A model generated the notes under the pieces. That model worked only from the letters and a program-made list of their open reading frames with translations. It searched no databases and was not told the origin of the DNA. A stretch of DNA of 63,626 bases, filler included, from Candidatus Nanoarchaeia archaeon (GTDB lineage Archaea; Nanobdellota; Nanobdellia; Woesearchaeales; DATDTY01): the NCBI GenBank assembly GCA_035290625.1. It is 5 parts of 5 records of this genome, joined end to end, with 100 filler letters (N's around TTAATTAATTAA, not from the genome) between each part and the next. Parts side by side here need not be neighbours in the genome. Positions count along the whole stretch, not along the records: positions 35,583 to 48,158 come from DATDTY010000023.1; 4 more parts are not named here. One strand, written 5' to 3'. Shown one piece after another: positions 6,542 to 61,359 of this stretch. Made by a program: the position numbers and the translations under genes. The number at the start of each line of letters is the position of its first letter. Position 1 is the stretch's first letter.

Positions 6542-6809
6542 AGAGGGAAGAAACAGAGGCTATTTTATAAGGATTTAGGTCAAATCCGCTAAATATCTGC
6601 CCATATCCGAACTTGTAAATGTCTCATTATTTACCAGTTTCTTAATCAAATACTTAGCACTATGAGCATCAGGCAATCCAACGTGAGAACCAAGCTTCCA
6701 AACGTCTTCTCCATTATTAGCTTTCATCCGATCCCTTTCAGCATTTGCTTATTTAATCACTCCGAAAACCAAAAGGCTTATATATTACTATGCATTACAA
6801 TGTAATACA

Positions 6810-7076
6810 ATGGAGACCGTCTCAGTCAGATTTGAAAAGAGATTCCTGCAGGACATGGAGCAGGTGATGAAAAGCCATAGGTACGCGACAAAAACAGAGT
6901 TCATACGCGAAGCTGTGAGAGAAAAGATCAGGGATCTGGAGACGCAGCACGCTCTGCAGAGGCTGGAAAGGGCGTATGGCTCAGGTAAAAAAGACAAAAA
7001 GATCACTGATGAGGATATCCACCGAGCAGGAGAAGAAGCATTTAAAGAGATTGCCAAGAAATTAGGCGTTGAGTAG
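6810..7076 (+). CDS. CopG/RHH antitoxin-like protein
   Basis: TVSVRFE..YATKTEFIREAVREK; TATA-like CTTATATA ~25 bp upstream; palindrome ATTACA-A-TGTAAT at 6794-6806. Confidence 0.8.
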   Translation: METVSVRFEKRFLQDMEQVMKSHRYATKTEFIREAVREKIRDLETQHALQRLERAYGSGKKDKKITDEDIHRAGEEAFKEIAKKLGVE

Positions 7077-7481
7077 ATTTTCAGGGAGTTTTGCTTTTGT
7101 TATATCTCTCAGCCTGTCGAAATGCCTATCTCTGGACACAAGCTGAGTTCCATGGTTACGGGCAATCACTGCATGAAGGGCATCACGCATAGGTACATCC
7201 CTTTGCATGGCTAATCGTTTTGCCTCTTCAATCTCTCTTTTGGTTGCAGAAGTGCGTTTTATATTGTCGGGCTTTGCTATGGACAATAACTGATGAATCT
7301 CATGTTCCTGCAAGCCAAGCTTCTTGAACTCAGTCACAACACTATCAGAGTAGAGAACAAGATGATTCCCTAAAATGATTTTTTCCATGAGTTTTTTAGC
7401 TGCTTCTCCATTATGCCCTCTTTTAAGATGGATATCTATCCATATGGACGTATCAAGGTAGTAGATGTTTTGCATCGGCAC
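7062..7481 (-). CDS. PIN-domain (VapC-like) ribonuclease
   Basis: YYLDTSIWID, conserved E, DALHAVIA, LVSRDRHF. Confidence 0.88.
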   Translation of the reverse strand: MPMQNIYYLDTSIWIDIHLKRGHNGEAAKKLMEKIILGNHLVLYSDSVVTEFKKLGLQEHEIHQLLSIAKPDNIKRTSATKREIEEAKRLAMQRDVPMRDALHAVIARNHGTQLVSRDRHFDRLRDITKAKLPENLLNA

Positions 7482-8535: not shown

Positions 8536-8635
8536 NNNNNNNNNNNNNNNNNNNNNNNNNNNNNNNNNNNNNNNNNNNNTTAATTAATTAANNNNNNNNN
8601 NNNNNNNNNNNNNNNNNNNNNNNNNNNNNNNNNNN
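8536..8635. other. Artificial contig linker
   Basis: N-run with central TTAATTAATTAA (stops in all six frames). Confidence 0.97.
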
Positions 8636-35482: not shown

Positions 35483-35582
35483 NNNNNNNNNNNNNNNNNN
35501 NNNNNNNNNNNNNNNNNNNNNNNNNNTTAATTAATTAANNNNNNNNNNNNNNNNNNNNNNNNNNNNNNNNNNNNNNNNNNNN
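35483..35582. other. Artificial contig linker
   Basis: N-run with TTAATTAATTAA. Confidence 0.97.
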
Positions 35583-35799
35583 TATAGCTAAAGCTACTCA
35601 GATCTGTCTGTATCATTTGATCTTCCTCCGAAGGATAGCACAGCTTCAACGCTTTTTGGCTATCCTTCGGTTTTCTTTAAGAAAAAGGAGATTTTATGTT
35701 TTCCCACTTAAGTTGACTTAACCCATATAAAGAAACATTTATAAATAAGCCAAGGTTCCTGAAAACATCCCGTAATACTATCTTTGATAGGAGGGTGCA

Positions 35800-36489
35800 A
35801 TGCAAAAACAGGAGATAAAACGCATTCTGGAAAAGGTACGTAAGGAAGCTCCGAAGAAGAAGTTCACCCAGTCAATAGATTATATCGTCAGTTTTAAGGA
35901 TCTTGACCTGAAAAAAACAGAGAACCAGGTAGAATTCTTTGTAGTCCTTAATCATGGAACAGGGAAGGAGAGCAGGATCTGCAGCCTGGTAGGCCCGGAG
36001 CTTATTGAGAATGCAAAAGTAAGTTCAGACACGGCAATTCTTGTTGACGACTTTGACAAGGTTGCCAAAGACAAAAAGTTGATTAAGGGGCTGGCAGACA
36101 AACATGCGTTCTTCATAGCACAGGCAGCCATTATGCCAAAAGTTGCCAGCGCCTTTGGCCGTGTGCTTGGCCCCAGGGGCAAAATGCCAAACCCGAAAGC
36201 TGGCTGCGTTGTTCCGCAGAACATAAATCTCAAGCCAGTTGTCGAGAAGCTAAAAAAGACAGTCAAAGTGAGCATCAAAAAGGGCCCGTTCTTTATGGCC
36301 AGGGTTGGGGCAGAATCCTCAAATGATGAGGAGATCGTAGACAATGTATTCACGCTTTACAATGCAATTCTGCACCACCTTCCAAAAGAGAAGCACAACA
36401 TCAAATCCCAGTATCTCAAGACCACAATGGGCAAACCGGTTCATTTCGAAAGCCAAGACGCTGTGAAGCAGAATGAAAAAGATTCCTGA
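35800..36489 (+). CDS. rpl1: 50S ribosomal protein uL1
   Basis: KKKFTQSID, GRVLGPRGKMPNP, LKTTMGKP. Confidence 0.95.
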   Translation: MQKQEIKRILEKVRKEAPKKKFTQSIDYIVSFKDLDLKKTENQVEFFVVLNHGTGKESRICSLVGPELIENAKVSSDTAILVDDFDKVAKDKKLIKGLADKHAFFIAQAAIMPKVASAFGRVLGPRGKMPNPKAGCVVPQNINLKPVVEKLKKTVKVSIKKGPFFMARVGAESSNDEEIVDNVFTLYNAILHHLPKEKHNIKSQYLKTTMGKPVHFESQDAVKQNEKDS

Positions 36490-37324
36490 AGCAAAAAAGA
36501 AGGTAGTTGATGAGTTTGCTGAGGCATTAGCATCATCAAAGGTCATCGCCGTCGTGAATATGGAGAATCTGCCTGCTGCCCAGCTGCAGACCATGGCTAA
36601 GATTCTTCGGAAAGACGTGCAGATCAAGATGACCAAGAAGCGGCTCCTTAACCTAGCTCTTGAAAAGGCCGTTAAGACAAGGCAGGATCTCGGAAAAATC
36701 AAAGATTACTTTATCGGTATGCCGGCATTGATCTTCACATCGCAGGATCCGTTTAAGCTCTACAGGAAGACCCAGCAATCAAAAGCAAAGGCCCCTGCAA
36801 AACCTGGCCAGATCGCTCCGATGGATATCGAGATCAAGGCAGGCCCGACACCATTTGTTCCAGGACCCATAATCAGCGAGCTCGCCCAGCTTGGGCTTAA
36901 AACCAAGGTTGAAGAGGGAAAGATAACAATTGTGCAGGACAAGATCCTGGTAAAGCAAGGAGAGAAAATCAACGAAAAACAGGCATCCCTGCTCCAGCGC
37001 CTTGACATCAAGCCGATGGAGATAGGCCTGAACATTGTTGCTGCCTTTGAGGACGGCATGATCTACACCAAGGAGGTCATGGCCCTGGACGACAAGAAAC
37101 TGATGGAAGATATAGCTGCTGCCTTCACAGAAACCTGCAACCTTATGGCAGAGATCTGCTATATAACAAGAGAAAATATCGAGATGTTCCTCGGAAAGGC
37201 AGCGGCAGAGGCAAGGGCCGTTGCATCTGAAGCAGGTATAATCACCAGCGAAACCATACCTGAACTTTTGGCAAAGGCAGAGGCAGAAGCAAAGGCAGTG
37301 AAAGACGAAGCTAAGCTAGCATAA
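36473..37324 (+). CDS. rpl10: 50S ribosomal protein uL10 (P0)
   Basis: APAKPGQIAP, GPTPFVPGP, LDIKPMEIGL. Confidence 0.95.
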   Translation: MKKIPEAKKKVVDEFAEALASSKVIAVVNMENLPAAQLQTMAKILRKDVQIKMTKKRLLNLALEKAVKTRQDLGKIKDYFIGMPALIFTSQDPFKLYRKTQQSKAKAPAKPGQIAPMDIEIKAGPTPFVPGPIISELAQLGLKTKVEEGKITIVQDKILVKQGEKINEKQASLLQRLDIKPMEIGLNIVAAFEDGMIYTKEVMALDDKKLMEDIAAAFTETCNLMAEICYITRENIEMFLGKAAAEARAVASEAGIITSETIPELLAKAEAEAKAVKDEAKLA

Positions 37325-37388
37325 CAAAAAAGATTAAAAGGGGTTGGAAACCCCGGTAAAAAAGCGCACAATAACGGAGGTAAAAGAA

Positions 37389-37691
37389 ATGGAATATGTC
37401 TATGCAAGCATGCTGCTTCATAAAGCAGGAAAAAAGATTGAGCCAGAGGCAGTCAAGAAAGTGCTTGAGGCCGCAGGCATCACGCCTGATGAGGCCAGGA
37501 TCAAGGCACTTGTGGCAGCACTCGAAAACGTCAATATAGACGAAGCTGTAAAAAAGGCAGCAGTTGCGCCAGCAGCGCCTGCTCCAGCGGCAGCAGCCAA
37601 AGAGTCTCCAAAGAGCGAAAAAAAGAGCGCTGAAGAGGAGAAAAAATCAGAGGAAGCTGCTTCAGCAGGTCTTGGCGCGCTGTTCGGTTAA
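37389..37691 (+). CDS. rpl12: 50S ribosomal protein P1/P2 (L12)
   Basis: [11 protein letters not shown], Ala-rich hinge, GLGALFG. Confidence 0.95.
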
Positions 37692-38540
37692 ATGCACGAA
37701 CTAGAGGCAAAAAAACAGATTGCAGCGCTCGGGAGAGAGGCTGCTGCATTGCGGCAGCAGCTCAACCAGAGCGCATCCCAAAAGAGGCAGATTCTTAGTG
37801 AATTGGATGCTCTTGAAGAGGAAATAGGCAGCAGTATTCTCGGAGCATCTGAAGCGAAGGCCAGGCGGGACGGGCGTACAAAGGAAGTCAAGGCTCAGAA
37901 AGATGCCAGAACTTTAGTTCAGGCAACCATGAAAGAAGTGATTGCAAGTCTTCGTTCAAGAGGAATGGGTAATCTCAAAAGGCTGCCAAGCCCGGAATCG
38001 ATTGAGGCGCAGATTCAAAGGCTTGAAGAAGCCATCGAGACCGAAGCATTCCCATTTGAGAAAGAGCAAAGACTGACCAAGAGGATCAAGATGCTCAAGG
38101 CTCAGAAGCTGGAGGCAAAACAGGCATTTGAGGAGCTGCAAAAAGAGAGGGAGAAGAGGGCTGAGATGGCAAGATTGAGGGGAGAAAGCGAGAAAGCCCA
38201 TGCAAATGTCCAGACTATGGCAGAGAAAAGCCAGATTGAGCATAACACCCTGATTGATTTTTTGCAGAAGGTTGATCAACTTAAGGAAAAAAAGAGGAGC
38301 AAACAGGCGATTCTTGACCAGAAGAGCAGAGAAATCAGATATCTCAGCTCGCAGCTGAAGGAAAAGCTTACGGAACTTGCCAAGCTGAGCGCAACAGTCC
38401 TAGGCTATGCGGATAAGAGGAAGCAGGCAGTAGAACAGCAGAAAGAGGAAAAGTTAAGGGGCATAAGGCAGAGAGCAGAGGAGAAACTGAGAACAAAAAA
38501 GAAGCTTACGACAGAAGATATCCTTGCTTTGCAGGCCTAA
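37692..38540 (+). CDS. Archaeal coiled-coil protein (COG1340-like)
   Basis: [20 protein letters not shown]-terminal [12 protein letters not shown]. Confidence 0.65.
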
Positions 38541-38704
38541 GATTTTTTCATCTCAACATAGCTGCAGGTGCCGCACACATAGCGGTTTGCATGCTTGCCA
38601 AGGAAGACTCCGGCTCCGCATTTTGGGCAAAAGCGGTTTTTTCTGGTAATCTTTCCTGCTGAAATCTCGTACAGTTTGTACTTCTGTGAAACCTTTTTTG
38701 CCAT
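38537..38704 (-). CDS. rps27ae: 30S ribosomal protein eS31 (S27ae)
   Basis: Manual translation [46 protein letters not shown]. Confidence 0.93.
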
Positions 38705-38976
38705 TAGCTTGCCTTCTCTTTGCTTGCCTTTTTGGGCTTCTCAAATCGCTTCAGGCTCTCGGCGCTTGAATAGACATACGCAGCAACTTTTGCAACCTGG
38801 GAACCGCAGCCAGATGTAATCCTCTTAAGAACAACATGCCCAGCCTTGAATTGCTCTGTGAGTTGCTTCAAAACCTCGTCTTTAGAGGGAGTTTTTCCTG
38901 TAAAGGGAAGCTCTGCAGAAACTTCAACGCGTGACAGGAGAGGCTTCTCGACTTTGGCAATGGTTGTAAGGCTCAT
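38704..38976 (-). CDS. rps24e: 30S ribosomal protein eS24
   Basis: [22 protein letters not shown]; conserved gene order. Confidence 0.85.
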
Positions 38977-39158
38977 TTTACCTTGATAGCATAATCCCCT
39001 TCATAGGTTATGCTCATCCGCTTTGCAATCTCTGAATGCTTCGGATCGATGATAGAGATTTTCCCCTGGAAGAGCGAGGTAAAGGCAGATCCATGGCATT
39101 GGGGACAGACAGCATCATCAACAAATAGCTTGCACTCTTTGCACACTTTCTTGCTCAT
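38973..39158 (-). CDS. spt4: Transcription elongation factor Spt4 (RpoE'')
   Basis: CKEC..CPQC zinc ribbon, IIDP..SEIAK..G.YAIKV. Confidence 0.93.
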   Translation of the reverse strand: MSKKVCKECKLFVDDAVCPQCHGSAFTSLFQGKISIIDPKHSEIAKRMSITYEGDYAIKVK

Positions 39159-39763
39159 TTTTTCCTTTTCTCAGGCTTTTTTTCTTTCTTGATTTCCTTC
39201 TTGATTTCCTTGGTATCCTTGATTTCCTTTTTGGAGTCTTCTTCCACCCACTCCAGCTTTCCAAGCCCAGGCTGCCTCATGGTCAATCCAAGCTTGGGGT
39301 TGTTGATGTCCTTGTAGGAAACTGCAATAATCCGTGCTCTGCAGGTATCCCCTACCCGAAGTATCCGCTTGGTTTCCTTTCCGGTAAGGACCTTCTCTTT
39401 GGAAAAACTGACGAAATCGTCCATTGTCTGGGAGATGTGAATCATACCTTCGATAGGCCCGAGATTCAGGAAAGCCCCAAAGTCTGCGATATCCCGAATC
39501 TTTCCAACAACAACCTCCTGCATCTCTGGTTTGAATGCCAGCAGCTCAAAGACCGTATCATAATAAGACGCGCCATCCCCAGGTATGATAATTCCTTCGC
39601 CAAGGGTTTTGATTCCCAAGACATCGATCACAATCCCGATGTCCCTGGAGATGAATGCGCTGTATTCCCTCCGGATAACCTTGATAATAGCATCCTGGGA
39701 CTCCATCCCGAATAAGTTCGGAGGAACACGGACATGGTCATGAACAGTGCTTTTATAGAACAT
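39155..39763 (-). CDS. rpoE1: RNA polymerase subunit Rpo7 (E')
   Basis: DHVRVPP, GDGASYY, FGAFLNLGPIEGMIHISQ, LTMRQPGLGKLEW. Confidence 0.95.
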   Translation of the reverse strand: MFYKSTVHDHVRVPPNLFGMESQDAIIKVIRREYSAFISRDIGIVIDVLGIKTLGEGIIIPGDGASYYDTVFELLAFKPEMQEVVVGKIRDIADFGAFLNLGPIEGMIHISQTMDDFVSFSKEKVLTGKETKRILRVGDTCRARIIAVSYKDINNPKLGLTMRQPGLGKLEWVEEDSKKEIKDTKEIKKEIKKEKKPEKRKK

Positions 39764-39805
39764 GCGCTTTGGAACAGTGGTTGATTTAAAAACCTTTTTG
39801 TTTTT

Positions 39806-40180
39806 TCACTGCAGCACAAGATGCTTCTTTGATCTCATTCTGATTATCCGAATCCCTTTCTTGCCAAGCTTTGAAATCAGCCCCTTATCCTGCGTCGCTA
39901 CAATAGAATCTGAGTTCACTGCTTCAAGGATAGCTGCATCAACATATGCCTGATTTGTGTCGATAACCTCAACCTTCTTTGCCTCCAGCAGTTGCAGGGC
40001 CAATGCTGCAGCCCTGGCGTCTGCCCCTTTCTTTGCCGCAATCTTCCTCAGCTCCTCACGCGTTGATGAGAGCACTGTTAAAGTGTAGGGAAAAAGCGCT
40101 ATTCGCCCGATTTCTGAAAAGATATCTACATGGAACTGTCCTGGTATGAGCAGGAAGTTTGTGTCGAGAATGATTCTCAT
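39806..40180 (-). CDS. Fcf1/Utp24-like PIN protein
   Basis: IILDTNFLL, VDAAI, VATQDKGL; usual position upstream of rpoE1. Confidence 0.85.
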   Translation of the reverse strand: MRIILDTNFLLIPGQFHVDIFSEIGRIALFPYTLTVLSSTREELRKIAAKKGADARAAALALQLLEAKKVEVIDTNQAYVDAAILEAVNSDSIVATQDKGLISKLGKKGIRIIRMRSKKHLVLQ

Positions 40181-40450
40181 GCTATGCATGAATAGCCGGC
40201 CCTTTTTATTTGTTTAGGATACTTAATAAAGACTATATTAATACTTAATATATAATAAAAATACTTGATTAATAATAATATTTCTTGTTTTTTAAACGAT
40301 TTAATTGATAGCAATAGTAATTTTTATCTTAAAATAGGATATTATTCATTAATAAAGAATATAAAGATACTTATCTTACAGTAAAAATACTTAATTAAGA
40401 TGTATAAAAATAGAAACATATTTAAAGACAATCGGATATGATACTGCCAA

Positions 40451-40999
40451 ATGAGAACAAGGCGAATTGAAGACTCCCAGCCTATAGATCCGCTGCTGAA
40501 AAAGCTTCACGGAGTTCTTGAGGATAACAAGGTATCATTAGCCCAGATCATAGGAACTCTGCGCCGGGAGCACAGCCTTTCAGCTGCACAGATTCTGGAT
40601 GTTCTTGCAGAGAAAAAGGCTGTTGCAGAGGTTTCTGAGGCGTATGTTCCTGTAGCTGTATTCTCCGGCAGATTAAGCTGCTTGGAAGCCATAGTCAAAT
40701 ATCTCAAGGAAAACAAAACGAGCACATTCCATGATATTGGCAAGCTGCTGAAACGCAACGAGCGCAGCCTCTGGAAGACCTACCAGAATGCAAAGAGGAA
40801 GATGCCGGAGCATTTGGCAGTTGAAGAGTCAGAGTTCTCCTTCCCGCTCCAGATTCTCCACGACACTTCAAGGGGTGTAGTCGAGGCAGTGGTTACATGG
40901 CTTCACGATTCTAAGGGCCTCACATACCACCAGATTGCTGTTTTGATGAAACGAGACGACAGGTCAGTATGGACTGCTTACAACCGGAGGAGAAGATGA
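40451..40999 (+). CDS. Tandem HTH-repeat protein (putative regulator)
   Basis: Two repeats LEAIVKYLKE..FHDIGKLLKRNERSLWKTY and VEAVVTWLHD..YHQIAVLMKRDDRSVWTAY. Confidence 0.75.
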   Translation: MRTRRIEDSQPIDPLLKKLHGVLEDNKVSLAQIIGTLRREHSLSAAQILDVLAEKKAVAEVSEAYVPVAVFSGRLSCLEAIVKYLKENKTSTFHDIGKLLKRNERSLWKTYQNAKRKMPEHLAVEESEFSFPLQILHDTSRGVVEAVVTWLHDSKGLTYHQIAVLMKRDDRSVWTAYNRRRR

Positions 41000-43900
41000 A
41001 GCAGCAGAATCTGACGGTTGCTTCGATTTCCATACTCTTTGCTCTCATCATGGTTTCGCTCTTCTTTTTCAAAGAAGAGATAACAGGGATGGCATTTGTT
41101 GGGGAGTCAGCCTATACCGATAAGGTAAGCACCGTGCTGGAGGATGGCGGCTCCTTCAATTGGATCCCGTCAGTTTCAGGCAATATTACGTCTGTGAGGA
41201 TTTCAGGATCCCTCATTGGAAATGGAAGCGCGAGGCTCTACTTGAATGCCGCCGGAATGAAGTATCTCCTCTACGACACCACAAATAAGTCTCTTCCTAG
41301 CCAGATTACCGGATTCATTGTGGCTGACAGCTCCGAAGGAGAGGAAAACCCAATTGGCGATGAGCCCTCAGAGAATGAAACTGATGAAGAGAATAACAAT
41401 GAGGGCATATCAGAAGAAATAAGTGAATCTGGTGAAAATAATACGGTTGCGGCAAGTGAAGAAGGCGCCATTGAGAACGCAGCAATCGAGACGATTGAAG
41501 TCATCAATGCCACAAACGAAACATCCATCCTGAATGAGACTGCAGATGAGATAGATGCCGGTGCAGATGATACAACGATAAAAAAGATTGCAGCAAACCT
41601 TGCCTACAAATCCGGCACAGAGTTTGACCCAGATGATGATGGCGTTGTTCTGTCAGACCAGGTTGTTGATCTCACAGTTGAAGCTACAGAGTTCTCCTGG
41701 CCTGTGGATGAAGAAGTGCTCTGCGCGAGATGGGAGATAACGAATCTCGAGACAGGAACAAGCGACTTCATCTGCCAGGGCTCAGAAGCCTGCTGCAGCC
41801 TTGTTGGACTGGCTCCAATAAGCTCATCCTGGAAAGAGCCCCTGTATCTTTACAAATCGCTCTACAGCTCGGGTTCTTCCAATATGGTCAGTGCGCAGGT
41901 CGTTAGTGTGGAGCTGAATGAAACAGCCATACAGCTGGAGATTACCCAGTCAGAATTGGCATCTCTTCCGGTATCATTTGCTGATCTTACAAGCCAATTC
42001 AATGAGGTTTGCGAGGAGACCTGCTCTCTTCCTGGACTGCAGGGAGAGTTTTCAATCGAATTAGAAGCAGAAAATGCTCAAGTGTCAATTGCAAATATCA
42101 CATATACAGTCAGGGAGCAGAATCAGGATCCGATATGCTCCGAGATTCCCAATCTCACCTTTTCCAGAAACTCCGAGTATACGCTGAATCTGGCAGAATA
42201 CTGCTCTGATCCTGAGAGAGAATCGTTGGGCTACACTTCATCAGAAATAGAGAATATCAGTGTAACAATAACAAACGAAACGATGATTTTTGTTCCTGAG
42301 CTCGATTTCATTGGAAAGCGGTTTGGCTTCCTGAAGGTATCTGATGCAAGAAATCAGATCATCTCAAATGTCTTTGAGATAAGTGTAGTTGCCCAGAATG
42401 AGGGCATTGAGACAAAGAAGCCAAGCGTCGTTGTTGGCAAGCCTGTAAAATGGATAAAGATCATTAACCTCACCGAGCCAAGTAATGTAACGATACCCAT
42501 CCATGCTGAGGCAACAAACATCACAGTAAAGAAGATTGAACAAGGCAGAGAAACAGCGCTCAACAGCAACATAAAGATTAGGGAAAACTCCAGAGTGAAG
42601 TCGCTTGCTGAATACGAGCTGGAGAAGAGCAGGCGCACGATAGAAGTGCGGGCTGAGGGTATGCCTCTAATAACAGGGGCAGTGATTGGGGTCGATCAGA
42701 TTGCCCCGGCCAAAGAGGCCACTTCAGAGGTGGTGTATACCTTAACTCCAAACTGCTTCTTTAATCGCTTATCATTAGACCAGATAGGTGATTTTAATTT
42801 AAGCGCAAGCGCAAAATATTCAACATCATCGGGATCAGGGCATAGCGACGCAGCTTCTTTGAGAAATTCCTTGAATTCGGTTACTGGAATAAAAGTTACT
42901 TCCGTAGATAATAGTCTTTCTATAAGCCCAAATTCTCCAATATCGATTTTAGCCTTGGACATGACAACATGGCGGTATTTGGTGAGCTCCCTCAATGCGA
43001 ACCTTGGAGAAGAAAGCTTGAGCCTTGGGTTAAAGAGCAGTGAACGGGTCAAAGAAAACTTCCTAAATGCGGAAAATAGGCAGTTACAGTCAACAACAAA
43101 CTCCACTTACACCAGTCCTTGTTTCTTTAACTCTTCACTTCTCCCTTCCTTGGCCTTTCTGCCGAGCCGAATGCAGTCTTCCTCAGTCAATGTAGAATCC
43201 TTTAACCAGTCATCCATCTTCTTCAGCACCAAAGCCCTCTTAACCTTCTCTGACAAGAACCCCCTCGTTGCCTCTGACCAGTTGACTTCAGGCAACTTGT
43301 CCATCTGCTTCTTCAATGCATCAGGTATAGATAATGTTATGTTTGGCATAGTAGCTCCTCATGATTCTGTGTGTCCTGTGAAAGATGTGGAGATATATAA
43401 AGGTTTTGAAGAGCTGCAGAACCTCATAACAGGAGCTGCAGCTGGTGCAGGCATAATAAAAGAAAATCAGGGATCATATAATCTTGACCGTACATCGGCT
43501 GTTGTTAATGATTCAATTTTGCCAATCTTCTTAAATCTCTTTTCATATGACCAGAATGGGCAATTGAGTTTTAATGCCAGCGCAAGATACGGAGCATCTT
43601 TCTTATGCTCCCCTAGCAATGCCTCAGCCTTGGGCAATGATGAGATAAATTCCTCTGAGAGAACTGACTTTATTTTAATCTCAAGCAATGCCATCAGGAG
43701 GTCAAATTCCAGCCCAGAGAGTTTCGATTTGGATAATGCCTCGGCTTTATGCCGCCTGATTTCAGCGAACATCAGATCCGGTGAAACCAAGTCGAGTTTA
43801 GGAGAGAAGATGATATGCTCAAGCCTGCCAGCTATCAGGGAAGAAAGAACAATGTTGGCATCAACAACTAATAGCACTCACTTCAACTCCTCAAACTTCT

Positions 43901-46900
43901 TTTTGTACTTCTTGTATAGCCCTTCATTCACCTTTTTGCCCAATTCAAGTGCTCCGTTCTCTGAAAGCTTTGATTTGGCTACGATTGATTTAAACACTGC
44001 AAATTCGGCAGCTTTCTCGGATATTGCTTTCCTGGCTATTTCAGACCAGTTTATCTCCGGCAATGAATCCATTTCCTGCTTAAGATCCTCAGGTATTGCT
44101 AATGTTAATGTTGGCATGGGCATTCCTCCACTTGTGGTTAATACAAGTAATTATGTGTATTATGTAAAAGTATATAAATCTTTTGGCGATCCGGGAGAGC
44201 AAATGCTGTACCAGGACAAGCAGAGCGATGAGAACAAGGCATATGAAGCTTCCTCGCAAGGAACAGGCCTTATCACAGGAGCATCAATAATCACAGGCTT
44301 TGCAGCAGCAGAAACAGCGCAAGAAAACACCACAGAGCTGATCATCGAGGAAAATATAACACAGGCAGAGATTGAGTATTACACTGAAGGCCCAGCAGCA
44401 GAAGAGGTAAACATCTCAGACACCAAAAAGCTGATCACGATTTCCTCAGCCATCCACTATGAGGACATTCTTGCGTTTACTGAACTGCCGAGAGAGGTTT
44501 CCAGCAATGCGTTTTCATTATTTTGGCTCAACAATGGATCAAGAATAAAGGTTGAAACAACAAACTATGATACGAATAATAACAGCCTCATTGATTACAT
44601 TGAGTGGGTCATCCCTTCCTTGTCAAATCAGACCTATGAGTTAAGCCTTGAAATTCTTACACTTCACTCTGTTGCAACTCTCGGAGAGAACTGGACAGTG
44701 TATTTCAACACTACAGGCAGTGGGAATTTAACCATTTCTTTAGTAACCAATGAGACTTATAACACAACCTGGGGGGAATGGCCTGTTGATAATGAAACCA
44801 CTCCTGACCACCTTCGATTTATTGATTTAGTCGGAAGGAACAATAACGAAAGCTATCAATCAGTTGATCACAGCAAAGAACTCGATACTACAACAAATAA
44901 AATAATAAAAATAAAGAAAGAAGGATGGAACTACACTGAAGGAGTTCTTATCAATGAATGGCTGATTGAAGATTATCATGCCATACAATTCAACTTTAGC
45001 GGAATTATTGCGTATGCTTTGAATGCGCCTCCAACCCACACAGCTCCAGTCCTCAACTCAACAGACACTTCTACAAACAACACCAACCAGAATCTGACCT
45101 GTTACAACCAAACAACTGCAGGCGATGGGACTGTAAATGTCACCAATATATTTGCATGGTACAAGAATGGAGCACCGAATGTAAGCTTAAACATCCTAAA
45201 CGGAACTGCCTTAGATAGGTATTTGGTTGCGTGGTGGCCATTTGACAATGACTACTACGATTACGCGCTTGCAAACAACGGAACAAGGAATGGGGATGTA
45301 TTTATCAACAAGTCAGGCGGTTCTGTTCGGGGTGGTGGTGCAGCGCAATTTGATGGGACTGGGGACTCTGTTGCTATGACGAATGATGCGTCGGTTAAGA
45401 TTACAGCGAATCTGAGTGTGGAGGCGTGGGTTCGGCCGTTTGCTGTTACGTCTCAGAGTACTGTGGTAGGGAAGCTTTCGTCTAGTGCTGGGGGCCTATC
45501 GTATCGGTTTATTGTTGAGTCAAGTCAAGCATCGTTTGAGGTAAGCGCGGATGGGAATGGTTTTGGTGGTGGTGGGGTTCCTGGAGGAACTATTAATGCT
45601 GGTTCTTGGTATCATTTAGTAGGAACGTATGCTCCAAGTTCAGCGGTTACGCTGTATGTGAATGGAGCACAGGCTGCATCGGATACGAGTTCTATTACTG
45701 CTTCAATTTATGATTCGGACTCGGCAGTGTATGTTGGGAGCAGAAGTGATGGCAGTAATCTGTTTAATGGGATTATCGATGACGTGCGCATCTATAGGCG
45801 TACTCTCACTGCGACTGAGGCATATCAGCACTACATTGCAGGCCTTGGCAACCATACGGAAGCTAAGGCAACAATGCTTAGTAATTTCACAACTAATGGA
45901 GACACGTGGACATGTGAAGTGACTCCTATCGATTACCTAAGTTTGGGCAGCCCATTGAATTCAAGCAATATAACCATACTAGCGAGCGTTCCTCCAACCC
46001 ACACAGCTCCAGTCCTCAACTCAACAGACACTTCTACAAATAACACCAACCAGAACCTAACCTGTTACAATCAGAGCACTGCGGGAAGCAGCTTTAACAT
46101 CACAAACACCTTCACCTGGTATAAGAACGGAGTTTTGAACGCTTCTTCTGGCATCATGAACGGAACTGGATTTGACATAGGCTTGGTTGCATGGTGGCCT
46201 CTGGATAATAATCCCTCTGATTATGTGAACGCAAGTGACGGTAATCTGACAGGAGGAGCAACAGTTCCAAGAGTCAACAGGACCTCCTACGCAATGGGAG
46301 GCGGCAGCTACAGCTTTGATGCGATTGATGATTATATCTACATCAACTACAGCAAGGCCTGGAACTTCACAGGAGACTTTGCCATTGAAGCCTGGGCGAA
46401 ATCCTACAATGCAGACATCAGCAATGCATGGGGCTTTATCTCTGGCTGGAACTCATCAGGCGCTCATACATGGGCTCTCAATTGGTACTATGGCAGTGGG
46501 GCATATTTCTATTACTATAGTGATGCCCTGACTATCGGCAATTTTACAAATGTAGGAGGCTGGAATTATGTAGCAGTCTCCCGCATCAATGGAACATTAA
46601 AAGGTTACATGAATGCAAACGAAACAGTCACAAAGACATTTAATACACCTATTGGCGCAGCAAACCAGTTAATCATGGGAAGCTTCTATGCAGACGTAAA
46701 CCCCTCCTACTTGCTGCGAGGAGAGCTTGACGAGATTAAGATTTACAGAGGCAGAGGCTTGACAGATGCTGAAATCTACCAGCATTATGTTGCAGGACTT
46801 GGCAACCATACAGAATCTTTGGCAACAATGGTGCACAATTTCACAACAGCAGGGGACACATGGACTTGCGAGGTTACTCCAGTTGACTATGTGAGCTTAG

Positions 46901-48158
46901 GAAGCCCGTTGAATTCAAGCAATATAACAATAATTATTCCCTTAAGCCAATCTGCGCCAATACTCAACTCAACAGACACTTCTACAAACAACACCAACCA
47001 GAATTTAACCTGCTTTAACCAGTCCACAAAATCTGGTTATGGATACAACGTTACAAACGTCTTCACTTGGTATAAGAACGGAGTGCTGAATGCAAGCCAG
47101 AGAATAATGAACGGAACTGCCTTAGACAACAACCTTGTTGTCTGGCTGCCGTTTGATAATGATTATTATGATTATGCAGGCCCAAATGATGGAAACGTGA
47201 CTGGAACTCCACTTATCAATAGAAGCTCAGGTGGATTTAAGATTGGAGGCGGAGCAGCCCAGTTCAATGGAAGCGGTAATCTTGCTGCTGCTGATTTCCT
47301 GACATTAAACACAACAAGCACAGAAACATTCAATTCTTCAAATAGGACCATTATTGCGTGGTTCAGAAAAGCTAACGCTTACGCTCTCCTTAGTGACGCG
47401 ATTGCTGGGAGAGGCGATTCGGGAAGCGGTTGGGATTTCCATCTGCAGGTGATTAGGTCGAATCTTGCAGATAACCGTGCAGACAAGATTGGATATACAC
47501 AGTATAACTGCTCAGCAAGCGCAACACTCTTAAACTCTACTACGCGCATCCAGGACACGAATTGGCATCATGTTGCTGCGATTAGGTATAGCAATGATAC
47601 ACTAGCCCTATATCTGGATGGGGTATTTGAAAATTCTACAGTCAGTTTAGTGAAATATTGCAGCAACTCATCAAGCGATTTTAGAGTTGGATATCATAAC
47701 ACAGTTACAATGAACGGCTCCATAGACGAGTTCAAAGTCTACAACCGCTCTCTTACAGAAGCCGAGATTTACCAGGATTATATTACAGGCGTAGGCAATC
47801 ATACAGATTCCTTGGCAACAATGCTGTCTAATTTCACAAAAACAGCCGATACATGGACTTGTGAAGTCACTCCTGTTGATTATGTTAACTTAGGAACTCC
47901 GCTGAATTCAAGCATTATAACAATCGGAGGCGGGGCCATTTACCCAAAATGGTCTGTCCAGAACGTTTCAGGAAACAACATTGCTTCTATTGACAACGCA
48001 GGCAACATGTTTATTGTAGGGACAAAGACAGAGAATATCAATGCAGGCTTCTCCACCTATAATAACACCTTTGTCATCATAAACTCCTCAGGAACCGCCT
48101 CAACAATCATCAACCAATCCGGCTTATATCTTGCAGACACCGTAGCAGAAAATATCGC
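40996..48158 (+). CDS. Giant surface glycoprotein with three LamG (laminin G3) modules; 3' partial; hosts nested antisense TA operons
   Basis: RBS GGAGGA and ATGA coupling; N-terminal TM; LamG motifs LVAWWPFD, SVEAWV, WYHLVG, FNGIIDDVRIY; many NxS/T sequons; frame open to the contig end. Confidence 0.85.
42696..43106 (-). CDS. PIN toxin (PIN_2-like VapC), nested cassette 1
   Basis: VVDCNCLFS, E, DPDDVEYFALALKLKSPIWSNDKRL. Confidence 0.88.
   Translation of the reverse strand: MEFVVDCNCLFSAFRKFSLTRSLLFNPRLKLSSPRFALRELTKYRHVVMSKAKIDIGEFGLIERLLSTEVTFIPVTEFKEFLKEAASLCPDPDDVEYFALALKLKSPIWSNDKRLKKQFGVKVYTTSEVASLAGAI
43107..43349 (-). CDS. RHH-type antitoxin, nested cassette 1
   Basis: MPNITLSIPDALKKQM..PEVNWSE; RBS GAGGAG; stop TAA directly followed by toxin GTG. 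Confidence 0.85.
   Translation of the reverse strand: MPNITLSIPDALKKQMDKLPEVNWSEATRGFLSEKVKRALVLKKMDDWLKDSTLTEEDCIRLGRKAKEGRSEELKKQGLV
43394..43408 (-). promoter_or_regulatory. BRE/TATA promoter of cassette 1
   Basis: Minus strand CAAAACC-TTTATATA about 45 bp upstream of ATG 43349. Confidence 0.7.
43467..43877 (-). CDS. PIN toxin (PIN_2-like VapC), nested cassette 2
   Basis: VVDANIVLS, E, KDAPYLALALKLNCPFWSYEK. Confidence 0.88.
   Translation of the reverse strand: MLLVVDANIVLSSLIAGRLEHIIFSPKLDLVSPDLMFAEIRRHKAEALSKSKLSGLEFDLLMALLEIKIKSVLSEEFISSLPKAEALLGEHKKDAPYLALALKLNCPFWSYEKRFKKIGKIESLTTADVRSRLYDP
43878..44123 (-). CDS. RHH-type antitoxin, nested cassette 2
   Basis: MPTLTLAIPEDLKQEM..PEINWSEIAR; RBS GGAGGA (true start probably 44117); stop TGA directly followed by toxin GTG. 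Confidence 0.85.
   Translation of the reverse strand: MPMPTLTLAIPEDLKQEMDSLPEINWSEIARKAISEKAAEFAVFKSIVAKSKLSENGALELGKKVNEGLYKKYKKKFEELK
44171..44186 (-). promoter_or_regulatory. BRE/TATA promoter of cassette 2
   Basis: Minus strand CCAAAAGA-TTTATATA about 50 bp upstream of the antitoxin start. Confidence 0.7.
45028..47920 (+). repeat. Three ~950-bp LamG units with near-identical DNA borders
   Basis: CTCAACTCAACAGACACTTCTACAAA(C/T)AACACCAACCAGAA at 45052, 46015, 46963; DTWTCEVTP.DY..LG.PLNSS closes each unit. Confidence 0.85.
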
Positions 48159-48258
48159 NNNNNNNNNNNNNNNNNNNNNNNNNNNNNNNNNNNNNNNNNN
48201 NNTTAATTAATTAANNNNNNNNNNNNNNNNNNNNNNNNNNNNNNNNNNNNNNNNNNNN
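48159..48258. other. Artificial contig linker
   Basis: N-run with TTAATTAATTAA. Confidence 0.97.
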
Positions 48259-61259: not shown

Positions 61260-61359
61260 NNNNNNNNNNNNNNNNNNNNNNNNNNNNNNNNNNNNNNNNN
61301 NNNTTAATTAATTAANNNNNNNNNNNNNNNNNNNNNNNNNNNNNNNNNNNNNNNNNNNN
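61260..61359. other. Artificial contig linker
   Basis: N-run with TTAATTAATTAA. Confidence 0.97.

Follow-up and report, generated by a model that had tools for sequence, protein, structure and literature searches.

Antisense VapBC-type operons in an open giant surface-protein gene of a nanoarchaeon suggest toxin–antitoxin cassettes that spare the reading frame of their host

Type II toxin–antitoxin (TA) systems of the VapBC kind are mobile, multicopy operons of two genes, antitoxin first, with their own promoter and with a PIN-domain toxin that keeps conserved acidic residues. Here we describe two operons of this type that lie on the opposite strand inside the long open reading frame (ORF) of a giant surface-protein gene, within a 63,626-nucleotide (nt) stretch of DNA, filler included (hereafter the window), from the genome bin GCA_035290625.1 (Candidatus Nanoarchaeia archaeon). 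They resemble VapBC systems in all of these respects, whereas three properties set them apart: the antitoxin stop codon abuts the toxin start codon in frame instead of showing the usual overlap of -4, -1 or +1 (an abutting in-frame junction occurs in only 1 of 19 loci with a TA pair from 61 genomes of the same order), the whole complement is free of stop codons, and the cassettes are located within coding sequences.

Long shadow ORFs on the strand antisense to conserved genes are a known class, and the frame described here shares their register, in which the third codon positions of the two strands coincide and which is intrinsically poor in stops. Unlike them, it is open among relatives about 14-fold more often than expected, is tied to the in-frame junction, and joins real host domains on both sides. 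Inteins with a homing endonuclease, and mini-inteins, offer another parallel: in relatives of the cassettes (the loci that we label L202, L061, L065 and P0003-P0005) a Hint/Intein_splicing element (C1 or S1 ... HN|T) sits within a giant LamG protein, and the relatives' inteins carry an insertion of ~220-300 amino acids (aa) at the endonuclease position. Unlike in endonuclease inteins, the cargo is a TA operon with its own promoter, encoded on the opposite strand, and the intein frame through it would be junk; the insert in the window, moreover, holds no intein domain.

The ShiLan domain, reportedly an HNH endonuclease 'hidden' out of frame within the DNA methylase genes of actinophages (Arsenault, Gosselin & Gogarten 2025, PMC11855218), is described as a selfish insertion that leaves the host frame open, has no detectable splicing domain and has empty-site homologs; the window insert, too, is missing from homologs, contains no stop in the host frame and lacks a splicing domain. 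The two differ in that ShiLan is reported as a single endonuclease gene of phages, read from the host's own strand in a different frame, whereas the window holds complete TA operons of two genes, each with a promoter, on the strand opposite an archaeal giant gene, with what appears to be family-wide selection for the open frame. Full-text searches of the literature returned nothing relevant on TA operons inside inteins or on nested antisense TA genes.

Two operons inside a giant surface-protein gene

The window joins contigs of a bin of 1.37 Mb and 84 contigs by paired 44-N spacers at positions 8536-8635, 35483-35582, 48159-48258 and 61260-61359, across which any feature would be an artefact of concatenation; the region of interest is contig C23, at 35583-48158. 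The host gene, delimited by ORF call and Pfam, occupies 40969..48158 on the plus strand and runs off the contig end. Its ORF is complete, at 2438 aa, in an independent metagenome contig of 15.4 kb (L054). From the N-terminus the protein consists of a transmembrane or otherwise hydrophobic anchor, the motif ITGMA, an N-domain, a linker with an ITG motif, and three Laminin_G_3 modules (Pfam match 2.5e-49).

All four TA genes lie wholly inside this ORF, on the minus strand. Cassette 1 encodes a VapB-like antitoxin of 80 aa (43107..43349) and a PIN_2 toxin of 136 aa with a GTG start (42696..43106; PF10130, 1.2e-21); a TATA box, TTTATATA, at 43394..43401 (minus strand), 45 nt before the antitoxin ATG, and a GAGGAG ribosome-binding site at ~43352-43358 (minus strand) were read from the sequence. 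Cassette 2 has the same plan, with an antitoxin of 81 aa (43878..44123), a toxin of 136 aa that again starts at GTG (43467..43877; PF10130, 5.7e-23), the TATA box TTTATATA at 44171..44178, 48 nt before the antitoxin ATG, and a GGAGG ribosome-binding site read 8 nt before that ATG, both elements again on the minus strand; the two ribosome-binding sites lie 7-8 nt ahead of their antitoxin ATGs, and the TATA boxes are of canonical archaeal form. Both antitoxins match the NCBIfam VapB model NF050799 below its curated cutoff of 60 bits (35.5 bits, ~1.1e-8, and 30.3 bits, 4.5e-7, respectively) and have no significant match in Pfam. Both toxins have the acidic PIN residues D6, E39 and D94, and in relatives the antisense translation of the promoter region is conserved (...YVYYV..FKxFG). 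In each operon the antitoxin stop abuts the toxin GTG in frame, and by coordinate arithmetic (congruent 0 mod 3) the third codon positions of the four TA genes and the host coincide. The two pairs are homologous yet diverged, with 35% identity between the PIN toxins and 45% between the antitoxins. By the PIN domain, its acidic residues and the small gene immediately upstream of it, the modules pass as VapBC-like type II TA systems in sequence, the antitoxins being VapB-like at scores below the cutoff. The original prediction, which had proposed two complete antisense TA operons in an open giant surface-protein ORF, each with its own promoter and ribosome-binding site, sharing one register with the host and related but divergent, is confirmed. 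A third TA copy in the genome (G000:C27:25989-26625, locus L023) is free-standing, with a junction of stop, 1 nt and ATG and a closed antisense frame; it directly follows another large, cysteine-rich ORF at the contig end.

Read in the host frame, the insert (42681..44267, plus strand) encodes ~534 aa between the outer ITG motifs without a stop, and is rich in Ser (17%), Leu (10%) and Asn (9%), with 3.2 N-glycosylation sequons per 100 aa. A host-type ITG repeat flanks each cassette. The 15-nt ITG-coding repeats, which form one repeat family on the plus strand, begin at 42666 (42666..42680, encoding LITGA at the left border), 43422 (43422..43436, between the cassettes) and 44268, and a fourth ITG lies at 44286; their spacing of 756 and 846 nt is that of the additions foreseen between ITG repeats. 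Repeats 3 and 4 (44268..44300, LITGASIITGFAAAE) make up the right border, the last copy being native and continuous with the C-part of the protein. The host therefore reads ...PLITG[cassette 1]LITG[cassette 2]LITGASIITGFAAAETAQENTTELIIEEN at this site, which is a K/E-rich linker at an ITG motif. The borders, ...PLITG|AVIGVDQ and ...GLITGASIITG|FAAAE, show neither the Cys/Ser of an N-terminal intein junction nor the His-Asn followed by Cys/Ser/Thr of a C-terminal one, and Pfam finds no Hint or intein splicing domain (blocks A, B, F, G) in the insert, although the same search detects PF14890 in L202, L061 and L065.

Two host paralogs in the same genome, C46 and C18, are contiguous across the site. 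C46, where the empty site is NAITGNVVAEILAQENTTEL, reads ...KPENAITGNVVAEILAQENTTELIIEEN... with a single ITG and shares 72% identity with the host in the first 335 residues of the C-part; in C18 two ITG motifs are separated by 27 aa. We rejected the 27-aa spacer of C18 as an antitoxin scar: the resemblance was at eye level, but a hidden Markov model (HMM) of the antitoxin, run against the six-frame translated genome, had no match at that spot at E <= 50. A 317-aa probe over the C46 empty site matched 131 of 301 genomes of the order, a tally that includes the genome studied here (G000) and the unpublished G273; among the matches listed, many run across the site in one stretch and only that in contig C23 is split, into two pieces 1.5 kb apart. 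By comparison with the empty-site paralogs, the TA cassettes are an insertion into the host gene.

Misassembly at the TA insert is excluded, because three Joint Genome Institute (JGI) assemblies and Logan contigs spanning the insert carry the same arrangement. The three assemblies, L054-L056, are 99-100% identical, with 4 mismatches over the 7190 nt that L054 shares with the window. Single Logan contigs span 42425-44384 in runs X4 and X6 (whose figures are identical, so that they are probably one data set) and 42425-44370 in X8, and X5 contigs cover 42026-43753 and 43795-44238; every junction is bridged by contigs from at least three other runs, from other studies. No joints of empty-site or one-cassette alleles were found in the contigs of four runs, in which rare variants are dropped, and the arrangement proved fixed across samples that differ in study and year. 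One X8 contig matches the window from 44062 onward and is preceded by 229 unrelated letters; it may be a variant or recombinant that diverges inside antitoxin 2 in that sample.

Could the open host frame be due to chance? When the TA proteins were held fixed and their codons resampled synonymously, the host frame stayed open in only 0.6% (genome codon usage) or 2.2% (within-gene permutation) of trials. The probability of finding no stop-generating context, as expected from the cassettes' own third-base frequencies, was 0.031 for cassette 1 and 0.032 for cassette 2. The three non-TA segments, promoters included, are open in the host frame only (joint P 8e-4, dinucleotide shuffle), with 1-5 stops per intergenic segment in the other two plus frames. 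Genome-wide, the shared-third-position register opposite long ORFs is open in 1.2% of 216-codon windows, and the 99th percentile of open runs is 289 codons, against ~534 codons over the genes and spacers of the insert. The combined chance is about 1e-6 to 2e-5, which leaves uncounted the three frame joints that must also fit (1/27 by chance). The open frame does not fall within the genome background for its register. The original prediction's proposal that frame-preserving cassettes had entered the host therefore stands in part: the insertion at the K/E-rich ITG linker and a frame kept open beyond chance, promoters included, hold up, but the open frame and abutting junction as an adaptation to this host do not, given how the relatives are distributed (see below). 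Its further suggestions, a guard against deletion and a link between host expression and the TA state by antisense transcription, are speculative, and true dual coding, with the host frame translated through the insert, is an inference.

Two observations on the surroundings may be added. The motif [I/P]-T-G-x-[A/V/I]-[V/I/L] directly follows the N-terminal hydrophobic anchor in about six proteins of the genome, at window 41080-41095 and on C10, C18, C43 and C52, and recurs at internal linkers of giant proteins, the insertion site included. Processing or the marking of a linker may be its role; a general role as a signal after anchors was rejected, since a crude count gave no clear enrichment (0.25 vs 0.19 per 1000 aa). 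A 127-aa ORF on the minus strand at 39806-40189, starting MHSMRIILDTNFLL, lies 0.8 kb upstream of the host gene across an AT-rich gap (GC content 0.25 at 40100-40400), and its start resembles what may be another PIN-type N-terminus.

Relatives of the cassettes and the places where they reside

We compared the cassettes with three samples of relatives. As these samples overlap and kin are not independent, all counts are descriptive and no formal tests were applied; organism names are the record titles of metagenome bins and may be wrong. In the 61 genomes of the same order, none of the 19 loci with a TA pair has an open PIN antisense register and none is nested. Two loci with long antisense ORFs, L004 (304 aa) and L015 (498 aa), were rejected as nested cases, the ORFs being neighbouring genes that touch the cassette ends. 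The pairing of antitoxin with toxin is kept in 18 of the 19 loci, and the wider set holds 98 complete pairs. A second sample comprised 80 metagenome contigs found with PIN2, and a third, of species genomes, has 25 of 82 pairs open (80 loci). All sources were then pooled and clustered at 90% PIN identity, which gave 81 clusters.

The junction is in frame in 54 of these 81 clusters, with gaps of 0, 3, 6, 9 or 12 nt. In 39 of them the in-frame junction goes together with a complement free of stops over the whole cassette, and in 15 the frame is interrupted by 1-4 antisense stops; the remaining 27 clusters are out of frame and closed. By the genetic code, an antisense stop in the shared-third-position register arises in only three contexts, namely a Tyr codon or a TAA/TAG stop after a codon ending in a pyrimidine, and a His/Gln codon after a codon ending in T. 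Clusters without such a context number 40 of 81, against 2.9 of 81 expected from third-base frequencies (~14-fold), and the other two antisense frames hold means of 11.7 and 16.4 stops. Open cassettes also have fewer codons of the kinds concerned, with 4.1 Tyr-type and 5.1 His/Gln codons (9.2 together) vs 5.6 and 7.6 (13.2) in closed ones. The third-base-frequency expectation and the genome background replaced within-gene synonymous permutation, which we rejected as too lenient a null for the relatives.

The toxins give no sign of decay in either state. Of the 39 open clusters, 38-39 retain each of the PIN residues D6, N8, E39 and D94, as do 41-42 of the 42 closed ones (D6 in 38/39 and 41/42; E39 in 39/39 and 41/42); for the acidic catalytic residues D6, E39 and D94 the total is 79-80 of the 81. 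Because this conservation is equal in the open and closed sets, the TA genes are not decaying shadows. To judge by these relatives, the open antisense frame and the in-frame stop/start are traits of the cassette lineages and not adaptations to the host in the window. The open state would be old and selected, with many losses, a direction that we favour because one mutation closes the frame while opening it needs many.

A recognizable home of open cassettes is the intein. In L202 (record titled uncultured Methanosarcinales) an ORF of at least 2190 aa has a match to the full Intein_splicing profile (1.7e-25) and to Hint (2.4e-9), followed by Laminin_G_3, and reads ...GR|CVAKDSLITL...[antisense TA]...THNFIANDIIAHN|T. 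The antisense TA genes of L061 (5e-16) and L065 (1.9e-14) likewise lie inside a Pfam Intein_splicing match; that of L077 is weaker (2e-6) and below the cutoff. Searched against 5.8 billion proteins, the host-frame translation of cassette 2 had four matches among proteins of 495-2000 aa, all four with PF14890 and reading S1...HN|T, one also with Laminin_G_3. L087 (2586 aa), L199 and L181 carry an element running from C-Y-D-[D/N]-E-T-[E/Q]-I-L-T-[D/E]... to ...W-S-G-N|S, which in L087 and L199 breaks a repeat left whole elsewhere in the same protein; it is intein-like only by its motif and by comparison with the uninterrupted repeats.

Other open cassettes sit in giant proteins with no intein. 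The protein of L073/L074/L143, whose N-domain is 38% identical to that of the window host (E 6e-32), contains two cassettes of different lineages, each flanked by a ~50-aa host repeat, and in L145, an S8-peptidase giant protein, intein-less cassettes stand between repeated modules of ~120 aa. Arrays of 2-4 cassettes in one open frame occur in L152, L094, L106, L133, P0006 and P0007. The record titles of genomes with open cassettes include Woesearchaeota, Nanoarchaeota, Aenigmatarchaeota, Methanophagales/ANME-1 and Methanoperedens, among others.

Several details of these loci deserve record. At L152:707-7544 (record titled Methanophagales ANME-1), open frames of 962 and 1016 aa each hold at least two antisense cassettes, with a repeated module of ~90 aa between cassettes (...NNFSLLSGWDS...GQFKDLYLAFELKER...VSPEHTVY) that matches no Pfam family. 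L061 carries a second TA-like pair, DUF433 (3.6e-21) with DUF5615/Mut7-C (5.4e-13), at 6744-7416 on the plus strand, antisense within the 797-aa intein ORF L061:5559-7952 (minus strand) and adjoining the PIN_2 cassette; a DUF433/DUF5615-like antisense translation appears again in L072 and P0006. Because of these pairs, the stop-free strand may be a trait that reaches beyond one TA family. A conserved segment ...LTGL.VRN.GLE.KSE[VA]PSS... accompanies cassettes in P0004, P0005, L061 (ORF residues ~415-450) and L073 (~1085-1115); as an embedded tRNA-like gene it was rejected, with 0 genes by ARAGORN in eight loci and 0 Rfam matches on L061 5500-8000.

Weighing the explanations

One explanation for our results is that the window holds two independent, ORF-transparent selfish cassettes of VapBC type and that the host is most likely read through the ~534 residues that they add, a reading to which, on sequence evidence, we give a probability of roughly 0.6. 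Each cassette would comprise an archaeal B recognition element (BRE)/TATA promoter, a ribosome-binding site, a VapB-like antitoxin and a PIN_2 toxin, and the two would represent lineages that keep the complementary strand stop-free in the shared-third-position register. Avoiding stops would be cheap, because only the three codon contexts yield them: the last base of the preceding codon can be chosen, Tyr, His and Gln can be used less, and the antitoxin stop and toxin start can be held in one frame. Both genes must share one frame if the complement is to be open, hence the stop-abuts-start junction. Cassettes of this kind could sit backwards in a coding sequence without truncating the host. Their most frequent recognizable home appears to be the place of the endonuclease in inteins of giant archaeal surface proteins, where the intein frame would have to stay open for splicing and the junk residues would be spliced out; as inteins must be translated through in order to splice, this would supply a direct selective reason for the open frame. 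That relatives live in inteins, which must be translated through, is the likely reason for the trait, one that the original prediction missed. In the window, two cassettes of different lineages lie, without an intein, at the ITG linker that joins the N-domain to the lectin-like modules; the host would be read straight through while the TA genes would use their own minus-strand promoters. The open spacers and joined frames suggest that only frame-preserving insertions survived, and hence that the downstream lectin modules still matter. Host-motif repeats flank the cassettes in the window, L073 and L145, which would fit insertion or spread by recombination through repeated host sequence.

This interpretation must be made cautiously, as a number of observations weigh against it. 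No RNA run that holds the stretch was found. Pfam assigned the 533-aa insert translation to no family, and the mature protein would need to accommodate ~534 foreign residues. On a maximum-likelihood tree the open and closed states are interleaved, with 36 changes, whose direction as losses or gains is read from the asymmetry of the two steps. In 21 of the 39 open clusters the cassette is free-standing, its neighbours being unrelated genes and its antisense ORF confined to the operon, so that the trait persists without a host ORF; such cassettes would also fit an unrecognised antisense gene. Within-gene codon permutation gives a high P(open) (0.02-0.83) for most open cassettes, under a null that keeps the adapted codon make-up. 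The intein-like element of L087, L199 and L181 has no Pfam intein match, and that of L087 reaches RecA mini-inteins in the PDB only at E ~1. The paralog C46, finally, might cover the function of a dead host gene. The original prediction had itself named, in advance, free-standing homologs with the same open frame and abutting junction as evidence that would tell against it. Such homologs prove to be routine, a result that generalises the idea rather than killing it.

The recent death of the host gene is the subject of one alternative, in which stop-free cassettes from inteins or other ORFs landed in a dispensable paralog, the open frame being inherited, the joints a matter of luck and the insert untranslated. 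This would accord with a trait that is lineage-wide and found in free-standing copies too, with the availability of C46 as a substitute, and with the lack of an intein to remove the junk residues. Yet the host frame runs for 7.3 kb without any other lesion, only the host frame is open across the promoters and spacers, and the open frame of free-standing relatives ends 25-150 nt beyond the start of the antitoxin. The host-type ITG in the spacer between the cassettes further implies that the insertions happened in this gene family, three frame joints would have had to fit, and the arrangement is fixed in the samples of several studies; a dead host is, in our judgement, unlikely. The stop-free strand could also encode a genuine third product, a protein or domain of ~240-260 aa with the same extent as the TA operon; the giant ORFs and inteins would then be fusions of it. 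Its frame is conserved over deep divergence and free-standing cassettes keep an antisense ORF of just the operon's extent, but antisense residues are dictated by the sense codons, so that this conservation carries no independent signal. An ATG falls within the first 12 codons in 9 of 16 free-standing antisense ORFs, whereas in the other 7 the first ATG is at codon 40 or later, or there is none, which makes the start inconsistent. With a low-complexity Ser/Leu/Asn product that belongs to no Pfam family, and with the segment filling the dispensable endonuclease position in inteins, a third protein seems to us quite improbable.

The two halves of the host might instead be made separately, an N-part with a dead tail and a lectin part that starts in frame at ATG 44204, which lies ~25 nt beyond the near-palindromic TATA (44171-44178) and so at the distance expected of a leaderless transcript. 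The lectin product would, however, have neither signal nor anchor in a family that is N-terminally anchored, the purine-rich element beside the TATA faces the minus-strand genes, and the open frame over 1.5 kb upstream would be left unexplained; we regard such a split as highly improbable. Finally, a chance shadow ORF or an assembly chimera is refuted. The shared-third-position register does yield long shadow ORFs, but the insert far exceeds their 99th percentile and the combined chance is minute even before the frame joints, and empty-site paralogs, independent assemblies and bridging contigs all speak against a chimera.

Beyond the window, the ORF-transparent cassettes may exemplify a class in Archaea of addiction inteins and their intein-free equivalents, a proposal that we advance tentatively and hold at somewhat less than even odds. 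VapBC-type operons, and at least one DUF433/DUF5615 pair, would replace the homing endonuclease as selfish cargo, on the opposite strand and with a complement kept stop-free over deep divergence, giving segments from ~650 nt to arrays of several kb translated on both strands. The TA system would secure the intein, or the repeat-rich segment of the surface gene, against loss, and the cassettes would move between ORFs via duplicated host motifs (ITG here, modules of 50-120 aa elsewhere).

If this is true, TA systems would have a third lifestyle besides plasmids and genomic islands, namely backwards inside the coding sequence of other genes, with a cassette sequence moulded to leave the host frame intact. 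Addiction instead of homing would be a new answer to the persistence of inteins without an endonuclease, and the 39 open clusters among 81 would make up a large natural set of long antisense dual-coding segments under measurable selection. There would also be a warning for annotation, as gene callers keep one strand and four such giant ORFs stand in the protein database as hypothetical intein proteins. For the archaea concerned, the tolerance of giant surface proteins to hundreds of foreign residues would become directly testable.

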